Shown one piece after another: positions 42,703 to 46,448 of a stretch of DNA of 64,000 nucleotides (position 1 is its first letter; each line of letters begins with the position of its first letter). Where the stretch lies: the NCBI RefSeq assembly GCF_055900595.2, contig NZ_CM148325.1. One strand, 5' to 3'. Position numbers and translations under genes: made by a program. The notes beneath the pieces are model-generated. The model saw only the letters and a list, made by a program, of their open reading frames with translations. It was not told the DNA's origin and searched no databases.

Positions 42703-43383
42703 TCACCCACTGTGGTATATGCGTTGCGGTCTGCCAACTTTGCCGTGAACAATTTCAGCAATAATCAGATGGCGGCTGGCGCAATATTCAAGATAACGTC
42801 TGGCAGTGGTGCGGCTGATAGTCAGTGCCTGCGCCACCGTTTCTGCCGTATGTTGCACACCAGGCTCTTTAAACAGTTTTCGCACCGCGTTTAGCGTCAA
42901 GGGGTCAATGCCGGTCGGCAGTTCGTCTTTGGGTTCACCGCGAGCATAGGCATTAAACATCTCATCGATTTGCTTCTGGCTGGCGCTATCAATACTTTCC
43001 AGCATATGTTTACGCTGGCGGAAACGGGTTAGCGTTTGCCCCAGCCGTTCATAGGCAATTGGCTTAATGAGATAATCAAATACACCACAACGTACGGCTT
43101 CAGACACCGTTTCCATATCACTGGCTGCAGTGGTAAACACCACGTCGCCGGGATAATGCGCCTGCACCAGTTCATGCAGTAAATTAATCCCTCTACCGTC
43201 AGGAAGATAGTTATCGAGCAAGATTAGCCCCGGCTTAAAACGCTCGATCATCATTCGGGCCTGCGCCAGGTTTCCCGCCAGTAATATCTGACTGAATCCG
43301 GGAATGTGACGAATATATTCCGCATGCATCTCTGCCAGCGGCGTTTCGTCCTCAACGATCAATAGGGTTAATGGAGCTGTCAT
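42703..43383 (-). CDS. dpiA: Two-component response regulator DpiA (CitB)
   Basis: 226 aa; receiver domain (LTLLIVEDE...LILLDNYLPDG) plus C-terminal HTH. Confidence 0.9.
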   Translation of the reverse strand: MTAPLTLLIVEDETPLAEMHAEYIRHIPGFSQILLAGNLAQARMMIERFKPGLILLDNYLPDGRGINLLHELVQAHYPGDVVFTTAASDMETVSEAVRCGVFDYLIKPIAYERLGQTLTRFRQRKHMLESIDSASQKQIDEMFNAYARGEPKDELPTGIDPLTLNAVRKLFKEPGVQHTAETVAQALTISRTTARRYLEYCASRHLIIAEIVHGKVGRPQRIYHSG

Positions 43384-45010
43384 TAGGTTTCACTTTCGGA
43401 ATATAGATTGAAAATAAGGTACCGCAGGGATCATTATCTTCGAGAGTGATAACACCACCGCAGCGCGTTACGTAGCTGGCAATCAAGTACAACCCAATGC
43501 CATGTTCGCCGGGCTCGTCAGCACGCGTACTGACACCCTGCTCAAATATTTTGTCTCGTAGAGACTCTGGAACGCCGCAGCCCTGATCGGCGACTTCAAT
43601 CACCACATCATCGCCTTCATCGCTGAGGAATAATTCAACGATCTTGTTTCCTTCATCGCTACGCAGGCTGGCTTCGAAGGCGTTATCAAGTAAATTGCCA
43701 ACAATGGCTGCAAACTCGGTGCTGTCCAGTCCTGGCGGCAGTTGCGAAAGATGACTTCCGGGGACGATGACCATTTTTAGCCCCAGTTCGCGGGCGCGCT
43801 GCACTTTACCAAAAAGCAGCCCCGCCACCTGGCGATCGGCAAACGCCTCGCGCAGGCTATCAATAAGCTGTTGCTGGGCCTGAGACTCCCCCTGCACCAT
43901 CGCCAACACGCGATCATACTCTTTCATCTGCAACAGACCATTGAGCGTCGACATCCAATTGAGATGCTCGTGTCGCAATGTGCGCAGGCTCTCGACGTAT
44001 TGTTTAATTTGCGTCAGTTGTGCATTGAGGGTGGATATTTCGTCTTTACTACGAAAGCTGATAATGGCCCCCAGCAAATCATCACCAGAACGAATAGCTT
44101 CCCGGTTGGCAATAACGCTCAGACCGTTAAAGTTCGCCACCACATCCTGACGTTTTTCATCAATCTGTTCGGTAAAGAAATCGGCGGGCCTGACCACTTC
44201 AGCAATGGGTTTACCCAACCATTGCCGTCCGGGGGAACTCAGCCCCAGCATCTTTCTTGCGTTACGATTGATGGCGGTAATGTAACCGTGCGGATCCACC
44301 GCAATCAGCCCTTCATAAACCGAACTAAACAGCGCCTCTTGCTGACGGACCACGCGTGCGATTTGCTTTGGCTCCATGCCCATCATTTGCCGACGGATAT
44401 GCGCGGCCAGGAACCACGACAGCAACATCAGAATCCCTAACAGCACGACAAACACGCCAGCCATCGGTAATAAAAACTCAGCCCGCCAGCTATCGATTTT
44501 ACTCACCAGGTAGCCAATCGACACCACGCCGATGACTTTTCCATCGTCATCAAAGATTGGCGTTTTGGCACGCATCGCCATGCCAATTGACCCTTTCCCG
44601 GTGATAAAGTAGCTCTCCCCTTTCTCCAGCGCGCCCGGTTTGGTGAACTGCATAGGATAACCAATTTTCTCCGGATTAGGATGGTAAAGACGAATCGAGT
44701 GCCGATCGCCAATCACCACATAATCGAAATCAGTATCTCTTTGTAATTTGTCAGCGATGGTCGCCAGCCTCTTGTAGTCACGCGTTTTCACTGCGCTGAT
44801 GATACTGTCATTAGAAGCAATAATTTTTGCCTGATTCATTGCCATGTCGCGCACATGAAGCGTTAAATAGTCCTCAAAACTGGCCGTAAAATATTGCGCC
44901 AGGGCTGCAATGACAAATATTGAGAACACCAGAATCAGCAAAAAGATACGCAGCGGAAATGCCAGTCTTTGGAAAAATGCAAACTGTTTATTCTCGTTAA
45001 GCTGCAACAT
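43352..45010 (-). CDS. dpiB: Sensor histidine kinase DpiB (CitA)
   Basis: 552 aa from the ATG at 45010 (MLQLNENKQFAFF); two TM segments flanking a periplasmic PAS-like domain; H-box LRHEHLNWMSTL; overlaps the dpiA start. Confidence 0.9.
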   Translation of the reverse strand: MLQLNENKQFAFFQRLAFPLRIFLLILVFSIFVIAALAQYFTASFEDYLTLHVRDMAMNQAKIIASNDSIISAVKTRDYKRLATIADKLQRDTDFDYVVIGDRHSIRLYHPNPEKIGYPMQFTKPGALEKGESYFITGKGSIGMAMRAKTPIFDDDGKVIGVVSIGYLVSKIDSWRAEFLLPMAGVFVVLLGILMLLSWFLAAHIRRQMMGMEPKQIARVVRQQEALFSSVYEGLIAVDPHGYITAINRNARKMLGLSSPGRQWLGKPIAEVVRPADFFTEQIDEKRQDVVANFNGLSVIANREAIRSGDDLLGAIISFRSKDEISTLNAQLTQIKQYVESLRTLRHEHLNWMSTLNGLLQMKEYDRVLAMVQGESQAQQQLIDSLREAFADRQVAGLLFGKVQRARELGLKMVIVPGSHLSQLPPGLDSTEFAAIVGNLLDNAFEASLRSDEGNKIVELFLSDEGDDVVIEVADQGCGVPESLRDKIFEQGVSTRADEPGEHGIGLYLIASYVTRCGGVITLEDNDPCGTLFSIYIPKVKPNDSSINPIDR

Positions 45011-45389
45011 TGTTTTCCTTGCGGGTTGTCCCGAGCCTCTTTGACGGATGTAATTAAAATGTTGAATCAAAATACATAGATATTAAATATAATCGTGGCA
45101 AATTTTATTCATTAAATCAATTAAATCACTTAAACCTGCGGGTCATTTCGTAATTACATTAATTAAAAAACTTAAAACCATTAAATAAATAAAAAACCAC
45201 TAACTCTATGTGAAATAAATCAAAATTTCACGCTGCAATACTCCTTAGGATGTATAGCGAAAGGAGAAAAAGATATACCTCGATCGCCCCCCTTTCTCCC
45301 AAGTGAAAATAAAAGGTTATCAGTTTGCAACATCGAACAACATTCGTTGCAAATCGATAACAACATGCACCTTCAGGATACTATTTATT

Positions 45390-46448
45390 ATGTTCGGCAA
45401 TGATATTTTCACCCGTGTAAAACGTTCAGAAAATAAAAAAATGGCGGAAATCGCCCAATTCCTGCATGAAAATGATTTGAGCGTTGACACCACAGTCGAA
45501 GTATTTATTACCGTAACCCGCGATGAAAAGCTTATCGCGTGCGGTGGAATTGCCGGAAATATTATTAAATGCGTTGCTATCAGTGAATCCGTTCGCGGTG
45601 AAGGACTGGCGCTGACATTAGCCACTGAATTGATAAACCTCGCCTATGAGCGGCACAGCACGCATCTGTTTATTTATACCAAAACCGAATACGAGGCGCT
45701 GTTCCGCCAGTGCGGTTTTTCCACGCTGACCAGTGTACCCGGCGTGATGGTGCTGATGGAAAACAGCGCCACGCGACTGAAACGCTATGCCGAATCGCTG
45801 AAAAAATTTCGTCATCCAGGGAACAAGATTGGCTGCATTGTGATGAACGCCAATCCCTTTACGAATGGTCACCGTTATCTGATTCAACAGGCTGCAGCAC
45901 AGTGCGACTGGTTGCATCTGTTTTTAGTTAAAGAAGATTCTTCACGCTTTCCCTATGAAGACCGGCTGGATCTGGTGTTAAAAGGCACCGCCGATATTCC
46001 ACGCCTGACTGTGCATCGCGGCTCCGAATACATCATCTCCCGCGCTACGTTCCCTTGCTACTTCATTAAAGAACAGAGCGTCATTAACCATTGTTACACC
46101 GAAATTGATCTGAAGATTTTCCGTCAGTACCTCGCTCCCGCGCTGGGTGTAACTCACCGCTTTGTCGGTACTGAACCCTTTTGTCGCGTTACCGCCCAGT
46201 ACAACCAGGATATGCGCTACTGGCTGGAAACGCCGACTATCTCCGCACCGCCCATCGAACTGGTTGAAATTGAGCGGCTGCGTTACCAGGAGATGCCGAT
46301 ATCCGCTTCCCGGGTACGTCAACTGCTGGCGAAAAACGATCTCACGGCTATCGCGCCGCTGGTCCCTGCAGTCACGCTGCATTATTTGCAGAACCTGCTT
46401 GAGCACTCCCGCCAGGACGCGGCAGCTCGTCAAAAGACCCCCGCATGA
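45390..46448 (+). CDS. citC: [Citrate (pro-3S)-lyase] ligase
   Basis: 352 aa from the ATG at 45390 (MFGNDIFTRVKRSENKK); synteny citCDEFXG. Confidence 0.9.
   Translation: MFGNDIFTRVKRSENKKMAEIAQFLHENDLSVDTTVEVFITVTRDEKLIACGGIAGNIIKCVAISESVRGEGLALTLATELINLAYERHSTHLFIYTKTEYEALFRQCGFSTLTSVPGVMVLMENSATRLKRYAESLKKFRHPGNKIGCIVMNANPFTNGHRYLIQQAAAQCDWLHLFLVKEDSSRFPYEDRLDLVLKGTADIPRLTVHRGSEYIISRATFPCYFIKEQSVINHCYTEIDLKIFRQYLAPALGVTHRFVGTEPFCRVTAQYNQDMRYWLETPTISAPPIELVEIERLRYQEMPISASRVRQLLAKNDLTAIAPLVPAVTLHYLQNLLEHSRQDAAARQKTPA

Follow-up and report, generated by a model that had tools for sequence, protein, structure and literature searches.

DpiA (CitB) switches on anaerobic citrate fermentation, and the DpiA/CitB system links beta-lactam stress to the SOS response. 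The Cit+ innovation in the long-term evolution experiment belongs to the same locus. Control of citCDEFXGT and dpiBA by CitA/CitB (DpiB/DpiA) has been described in E. coli (Ingmer 1998; Yamamoto 2009; Scheu 2012; DpiA sites in EcoCyc), and the region analysed here matches that system in locus, genes and regulator, with nothing that points to a biological difference. The dpiB-citC control region and the DpiA sites within it are already known: the sites are annotated in EcoCyc, as stated in a preprint (bioRxiv 10.1101/2023.10.13.562223), and have been used experimentally. Genomic SELEX and footprinting of E. coli CitB are credited to Yamamoto 2009 (doi 10.1271/bbb.80586).

In Klebsiella, the citC control region is a target of both phospho-CitB and CRP, which act together (PMC2735749), and the title of the original paper (Meyer, Dimroth and Bott) speaks of A+T-rich target sequences. 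The citS-citC region of Klebsiella pneumoniae (Meyer, Dimroth and Bott 1997, 2001) has its phospho-CitB targets upstream of citC, and the E. coli-type region similarly features a CRP/FNR-type site beside the arrays described below. In contrast to the dpiB/citC pair of E. coli, the divergent gene in K. pneumoniae is citS, and citAB are found at the end of the citS operon.

MaeR, which belongs like DpiA to the citrate family of two-component systems, protects three tandem 8-bp TTATT(A/T)AA direct repeats in a divergent intergenic region (PMC5457438). Repeats 1 and 2, which are separated by 1 bp and spaced 9 bp from start to start, dominate binding. Binding is abolished when the repeats are mutated and is enhanced by phosphorylation (PMC5457438). 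The MaeR operator of Lactobacillus casei (maeP-maeK intergenic region; PMC5457438; Landete 2010) and the arrays described below both occupy a divergent region and consist of tandem AT-rich direct repeats with a 9-bp period (between repeats 1 and 2 in the case of MaeR). The repeated unit differs (TTATT(A/T)AA for MaeR, ATTAAAnMM here), and MaeR has one array, whereas two arrays 42 bp apart are present here. Unlike that of DpiA, the MaeR system is Gram-positive, concerns malate and features a non-canonical kinase.

Operators of the OmpR/PhoB type are similarly made of tandem direct repeats, read head-to-tail by phosphorylation-induced dimers. In such operators, promoters without a -35 element are activated from a site that overlaps the -35 region, which matches the predicted position of array A1 at dpiB. 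In contrast, DpiA carries an HTH_64 domain, and its putative units have a 9-bp period and rotate round the helix, while those of the OmpR/PhoB type are spaced by 10-11 bp and lie on one face.

The window, a 64-kb stretch of DNA, is derived from E. coli, and positions 44900-45500 are 100% identical to several E. coli chromosomes. Positions 45011-45389 correspond exactly to the divergent dpiB/citC intergenic region, which is 379 bp long. A preliminary description of the window had named the two flanking genes from the letters alone, and the identical annotated E. coli chromosomes show that both names are correct: dpiB (minus strand) ends at 45010 and citC (plus strand) starts at 45390. The gene order is the same in the MG1655 annotation, which lists citT-citG-citX-citF-citE-citD-citC followed, on the other strand, by dpiB-dpiA-dcuC. 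In the EHEC annotation, the start of citC is set at an upstream GTG, at 45303. The strain differs from MG1655 at 9 of the 379 positions, just one of which is inside the repeats; window positions 45111-45197 correspond to MG1655 positions 652048-652134. The local GC content is 20-24%, and is 21% in the repeat core. The genes relevant to the analysis are the following:

42703-43383, minus strand: dpiA (citB), response regulator with a receiver and an HTH_64 "DpiA-like" DNA-binding domain (Pfam PF00072 and PF20714, E = 1.6e-48; annotation); presumed to be the regulator reading the arrays.
43352-45010, minus strand: dpiB (citA), citrate sensor kinase, divergent from the control region (Pfam sCache_3_2, PAS and HATPase_c; annotation).
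45390-46448, plus strand: citC, first gene of the citrate lyase operon and regulated target (Pfam Citrate_ly_lig; annotation).

The preliminary description had also pointed to TTAAAT(C/A)A repeats in direct orientation between the two genes. Pattern searches revealed that these repeats are real: three exact copies (45112-45119, 45121-45128 and 45181-45188), along with looser ones, are all found on the plus strand. Of the starts originally given, those at 45113 and 45173 are off by one and were moved to 45112 and 45172. The copies at 45083 (TTAAATAT) and 45172 (TTAAAACC) are close variants and do not carry the exact motif. Additional copies, absent from the original list, occur at 45130 (TTAAACCT), 45163 (TTAAAAAA) and 45054. 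The shorter pattern (A/C)TTAAA is found eight times on the plus strand (citC-sense), at 45053, 45082, 45111, 45120, 45129, 45162, 45171 and 45180, and not once on the minus strand. The spacings between these copies are 29, 29, 9, 9, 33, 9 and 9 bp, so that six of them make up two triplets with a strict 9-bp period. A period-9 array spanning 45111-45134, with the consensus ATTAAATCA, was independently detected by Tandem Repeats Finder. The outlying copies at 45054 and 45083 were rejected as array members: the first is located in a differently conserved block and the second is Escherichia-specific. Neither is kept outside Escherichia, and both are probably not part of the arrays.

Short A/T words recur readily in AT-rich sequence, and the repeats could be the functionless outcome of chance in low-complexity DNA or of replication slippage. 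Enrichment was evaluated by 5000 dinucleotide-preserving shuffles of either the 379-bp region or the 21%-GC core. With both patterns picked post hoc, TTAAAT[CA]A was observed 3 times versus 0.17-0.22 expected (P = 0.0004-0.0008), and [AC]TTAAA was observed 8 times versus 1.3-1.4 expected (P < 0.0002). Enrichment above the AT-rich background, the lack of which had been named as a refutation, is borne out at P <= 0.001 for these post hoc patterns. Identical spacing in four of the seven intervals has a P value of ~0.001 under random placement. The pattern MTTAAA-N3-MTTAAA-N3-MTTAAA, searched with at most one mismatch, has four overlapping matches in the region, none elsewhere in the 64 kb, and none in 100 shuffles. 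Between Escherichia and Providencia, moreover, the units do not shift in position, and 5352 of 5426 complete E. coli genomes carry the region at 95-100% identity. The shuffles and this constancy argue so strongly against chance or slippage that we give this origin next to no credit, although the motif definitions were chosen post hoc. A variable-number tandem repeat was also considered, and is ruled out by the fixed unit positions across genera, the unit-specific sequences and the lack of copy-number variation. A scan against Rfam returned only a spurious sub-threshold match to SCARNA7 (17.6 bits, compared with a gathering score of 65), and no RNA family in that scan explains the repeats.

The units conform to the 9-bp consensus A-T-(T/a)-A-A-A-n-(C/A)-(C/A), or ATTAAAnMM, are arranged head-to-tail, and point towards citC. 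They are organized as follows:

45111-45137, plus strand: array A1, three 9-bp units ATTAAATCA ATTAAATCA CTTAAACCT (Tandem Repeats Finder with period 9, pattern search, multiple alignment and unit table).
45120-45137, plus strand: core site 1, 18-bp double unit ATTAAATCA-CTTAAACCT, which fits ATTAAnnnA-(A/C)TWAAAACC and is found at the equivalent position in ~40 loci.
45153-45197, plus strand: array A2, five in-register 9-bp units ATTACATTA ATTAAAAAA CTTAAAACC ATTAAATAA ATAAAAAAC (repeat family and unit table).
45162-45179, plus strand: core site 2, 18-bp double unit ATTAAAAAA-CTTAAAACC, the most strongly conserved block.

The invariant part of each array is the 18-bp double unit ATTAAnnnA-(A/C)TWAAAACC. 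The two cores map to 652125-652108 and 652083-652066 in MG1655. Extra units flank the cores in E. coli, at 45111, 45153, 45180 and 45189, and the first and last units of A2 are degenerate in this species. The cross-genus consensus of A1 is ATTAAATCA ATTAAACAA ATAAAAACC. A repeat search revealed that A1 and A2 are paralogous copies, which form a 34-nt repeat family with spacings of 42, 9 and 9. The core-to-core offset is 42 bp in 36 of the 42 loci with at least two matches, the remainder being accounted for by extra overlapping matches. This distance corresponds to about four helical turns, and places both cores on the same face of the DNA. The 9-bp spacing inside each core is less than one helical turn.

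A scan of one genome per species yielded 80 citC loci, ~50 of which feature a divergent upstream dpiB and an intergenic region of similar length. TTAAA units spaced by 9 bp lie on the same strand and at a near-constant distance from the start codon of citC in Escherichia, Citrobacter, Salmonella, Intestinirhabdus, Hafnia, Buttiauxella, Atlantibacter, Providencia and Moellerella. The arrays keep their position, orientation and spacing over a range that extends from Escherichia to Providencia and Serratia. They rank with the best conserved blocks of a 15-taxon alignment: over the other 14 taxa, mean identity to E. coli reaches 0.79 in A1 and 0.81 in A2 (45160-45197), compared with 0.45 for the A1-A2 spacer, 0.38-0.39 for other unconserved stretches and 0.57 for the whole region. 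The composite module of two cores and a TGTGA site (see below) is conserved in the four families covered, namely the Enterobacteriaceae, Hafniaceae, Morganellaceae and Yersiniaceae.

Arrays and regulator genes occur together. In 78 citC loci from other species (~540 kb in total), which are phylogenetically related, a relaxed triple-unit pattern has 136 matches upstream of citC on the citC strand, a single match on the opposite strand and none at any other place. Of the 57 loci whose upstream flank encodes a DpiA/DpiB homologue, 56 have arrays upstream of citC, compared with 0 of the 21 loci without one, figures that overstate the number of independent events because the loci share ancestry; the positive set spans several Enterobacterales families. 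No array was detected in ~510 kb of flanking DNA. The single Klebsiella locus in the set (L068) has a different gene order and no arrays.

The positive set includes Serratia loci in which the regulator gene alone, with no kinase gene, is next to citC. For instance, in Serratia sp. H1w (L049), a 228-residue DpiA-like response regulator (1991-2677) faces citC, and the genes beyond it are ABC-transporter permease-like, with no kinase. Similarly, four Serratia loci (L044, L054, L063 and L081) and one locus of an unclassified member of the Enterobacteriaceae (L045) carry a DpiA-like match near citC and no DpiB match in the flank. All of these loci retain the proximal array and, with the exception of L063, in which no TGTGAA site was found, the TGTGAA site described below.

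Two public assemblies in the set are probably contaminated or mislabelled. A 484-bp contig labelled Terrisporobacter mayombei (L079; coverage ~1x) encodes a CitC fragment 99% identical to that of E. coli, and a contig labelled Chryseobacterium sp. 18061 (L032) carries an Enterobacterales-type citC (77% identical).

With a GC content of 20-24%, the core has the typical composition of H-NS-bound DNA and would also attract H-NS or Fis. The citrate genes are off under most conditions, and DpiA itself is described as a general AT-rich DNA binder. The repeats might accordingly serve mainly nucleoid-associated proteins (H-NS, Fis, IHF) or DNA curvature, silencing or shaping the divergent promoters, with no specific reading of the 9-bp units. 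AT-richness would suffice for such proteins, whereas the 9-bp register, the single orientation and the 42-bp and 47-bp offsets are kept across Enterobacterales families, and the AT-rich spacers drift while the blocks stay. The profile of an H-NS-type silencer, which is AT-rich with no conserved register or orientation, fits the region in base composition, but not in its conserved register, orientation and spacing. Moreover, the 9-bp period is out of helix phase and would not produce planar A-tract bending, and citC promoters without DpiAB have no arrays. A main role in nucleoid protein binding or curvature is hence improbable.

The TTAAA repeats are most likely the operator of the citrate-responsive regulator DpiA (CitB). 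The preliminary description had suggested DpiA binding sites, and support for this suggestion is indirect but strong: it comes from conservation, from the co-occurrence of arrays and DpiA/DpiB genes, from the likeness to the MaeR operator, and from the EcoCyc sites and a deletion reported for C. rodentium. The location between dpiBA and citC, beside the genes of the regulator itself, fits an operator of the CitB/DpiA (HTH_64) family, and the tandem AT-rich units with a 9-bp period (45111, 45120 and 45129; 45153 to 45189) fit a MaeR-like design of such an operator. A sequence search of the PDB returned as the best match to DpiA the receiver domain of L. casei MaeR (5LWK/5LWL), and found no structure of an HTH_64 DNA-binding domain or of its complex with DNA. 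In the C. rodentium dpiAB-PcitC sensor, DpiA sites were placed by alignment to the EcoCyc MG1655 sites, and deletion of the aligned sites resulted in loss of the citrate response; DpiAB of an E. coli host is able to drive the C. rodentium PcitC (bioRxiv 10.1101/2023.10.13.562223). We infer that the published E. coli DpiA footprint overlaps the arrays; the array sequence strings had no match in the full-text literature searched. Binding of DpiA to the AT-rich 13-mers repeated in oriC has been reported as well (Miller 2003, as cited in PMC4285127).

One of the arrays, most plausibly A1 beside dpiB, could instead be primarily a site for DcuR in a DcuS/DcuR-to-citAB cascade, with DpiA bound to the other array. 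DcuR and DpiA have the same architecture, are 31% identical, and carry similar recognition helices (ISRTTARRYL vs ISRVSCRKYL). Scheu 2012 (J Bacteriol 194:636) reportedly places a DcuR binding site ahead of the citAB operon, with phospho-DcuR binding to that promoter region. The DcuR motif, reportedly defined by Abo-Amer 2004 as tandem (T/A)(A/T)(T/C)(A/T)AA, is fitted by ATTAAA. The DcuR footprint at LEE1 spans 18 bp, which is the size of one double unit, but its sequence (TTATCTCACATAATTTAT) is different. Against a DcuR site, too, A1 and A2 are paralogous copies of one unit, and both track DpiA/DpiB beside citC. By inspection, the MG1655 region upstream of dcuB, including the position that we take to be protected by DcuR, has no obvious 9-bp ATTAAA array, and for this reason no motif shared by DcuR and DpiA is claimed. 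Use of one array primarily by DcuR is, in our view, rather unlikely, and DpiA remains the favoured reader of both arrays.

Additional conserved elements are located between the arrays and the two genes:

45209-45224, strand not assigned: CRP/FNR-type site TGTGA-AATAAA-TCAAA (multiple alignment, identity 0.87; fixed spacing to core 2).
45246-45251, plus strand: predicted citC -10 element TAGGAT (TAcGAT in other genera), proposed from its position inside conserved block AATACTCCTTAnGATGTA.
45092-45100, minus strand: predicted dpiB extended -10 element TGcCACGAT (TGtAACGAT in other genera), inside conserved block gATCGTTaCAGATT (identity 0.76).

The ends of the TGTGA site are conserved across genera and its centre is variable. 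TGTGA-N6-TCAAA matches the TGTGA-N6-TCACA-like palindrome at 9 of 10 consensus positions, and we take the 45209-45224 site to be of the CRP/FNR type from this consensus. The assignment draws further on the CRP precedent in Klebsiella (PMC2735749) and on the cAMP-CRP regulation mentioned in bioRxiv 10.1101/2023.10.13.562223. Core 2 is upstream of the TGTGAA site, with a distance of 47 bp from the core 2 start in 41 of 48 loci. A 24-nt imperfect inverted repeat (45057-45080 / 45205-45228; 71% complementary) flanks both arrays. Its right arm contains the TGTGA-N6-TCAAA site, of which the partly conserved left arm, AAATGTTGAATCAAAATACATAGA, is a weak mirror image.

A scan of 44950-45450 for consensus sigma-70 promoters and terminators returned no canonical match, which fits activator-dependent promoters. 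Transcription of citC may start near 45258. Relative to this predicted start, the TGTGA site would be centred at -41.5, a value that hangs on the predicted -10 element, with core 2 at -87.5 and core 1 at -129.5. The -10 element TAGGAT is plausible and lies within a larger conserved block, AATACTCCTTAGGATGTA (45237-45254), which also holds TACTCCT-TA-GGATGTA (45239-45254). The latter resembles a NarL/NarP 7-2-7 site, assuming TACYYMT as the heptamer. It is kept across genera and overlaps the predicted citC -10 element; a NarL site at this position would fit nitrate repression and the NarL regulation mentioned in bioRxiv 10.1101/2023.10.13.562223.

On the opposite side, ATCGTGGCAAATT (45092-45104), read on the dpiB strand, provides the extended -10 element TGcCACGAT. 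With low confidence, the dpiB start can be placed near 45085, which would set core 1 at about -43.5. The block gATCGTTaCAGATT (45091-45104), which adjoins A1, has a near-copy, TCGTTGCAAAT, at 45344-45354 (91% identical), in the right arm of an inverted repeat of the citC leader. A further conserved block, TGTAATTAAAATGTTG (45049-45064; identity 0.75), which reads TGTAATAAAAATGTTT in other genera, has two TGTWN repeats at an 11-bp distance and resembles the ArcA box (TGTTA direct repeats with 11-bp spacing). The left arm AAATGTTGAATCAAAATACATAGA of the 24-nt inverted repeat overlaps this block.

Both leaders contain other elements. In the dpiB leader, CCGUCAAAGAGG (45036-45047, minus strand) is a perfect 12-nt complement of nucleotides 46-57 of ChiX (RybC), CCUCUUUGACGG; the match fits the repression of dpiBA by ChiX for which Mandin and Gottesman 2009 is the source named. 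In the alignment, genera other than Escherichia do not share this stretch. Antisense to the 5' end of citC, a 101-residue GTG-initiated open reading frame (45320-45625, minus strand) corresponds to nog1, a published overlapping gene in the -2 frame of citC that encodes 101 residues and is restricted to Escherichia/Shigella (PMC4683798). Its 3' end reaches into the intergenic region as annotated in K-12. Directly upstream of the citC start codon, an inverted repeat (45316-45361) is formed by the 16-bp arms GTTATCAGTTTGCAAC and GTTGCAAATCGATAAC, which are 88% complementary and separated by 14 nt. As plus-strand RNA, the repeat has a folding energy of -16.6 kcal/mol (z = -3.3), and 0 of 200 shuffles were as stable. 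On the minus strand, it is followed by CUUUUAUUUU and looks like a terminator of nog1. In other genera, the left arm alone is well conserved.

These elements may be combined in the following model, whose promoter geometry is held with much lower confidence than the assignment of the operator to DpiA. CitA/DpiB would sense citrate and phosphorylate DpiA, a dimer of which may sit head-to-tail on each 18-bp double unit, and the extra flanking units could let DpiA spread at higher concentration. The proximal DpiA complex would be located near -87.5 of a citC promoter with a weak -10 element (TAGGAT) and no -35 element, and may bring RNA polymerase to citC in concert with a CRP/FNR-type activator at -41.5. 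The distal complex would overlap the -35 region of the divergent dpiB promoter and could account for autoregulation of dpiBA. NarL bound over the citC -10 element may mediate nitrate repression. One of the arrays may in addition be used by DcuR, a DpiA paralogue whose DNA-binding domain is the same.

For the most part, these results confirm textbook regulation, and the gain is a sharper, testable definition of the sites as two 18-bp cores. The division into 9-bp units, the pair of 18-bp cores with their 42-bp offset and the constant 47-bp distance to the TGTGA site, all read from sequence comparisons, may go beyond what has been published. This architecture, with its off-helical 9-bp period, would add new detail to an old system, provided that no published footprint has been resolved to the level of units. 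Tentatively, and with more doubt than confidence, ATTAAAnMM in 18-bp double units, two of them at a fixed distance of 42 bp from each other and of 47 bp from a CRP/FNR-type site, could be proposed as the first explicit DNA-recognition rule for the HTH_64 (DpiA/CitB/DcuR) family. A gut sensor that uses the orthologous promoter of C. rodentium already exists (bioRxiv 10.1101/2023.10.13.562223), and knowledge of the bases read by DpiA would be useful for the engineering of citrate biosensors and for the prediction of other DpiA targets.
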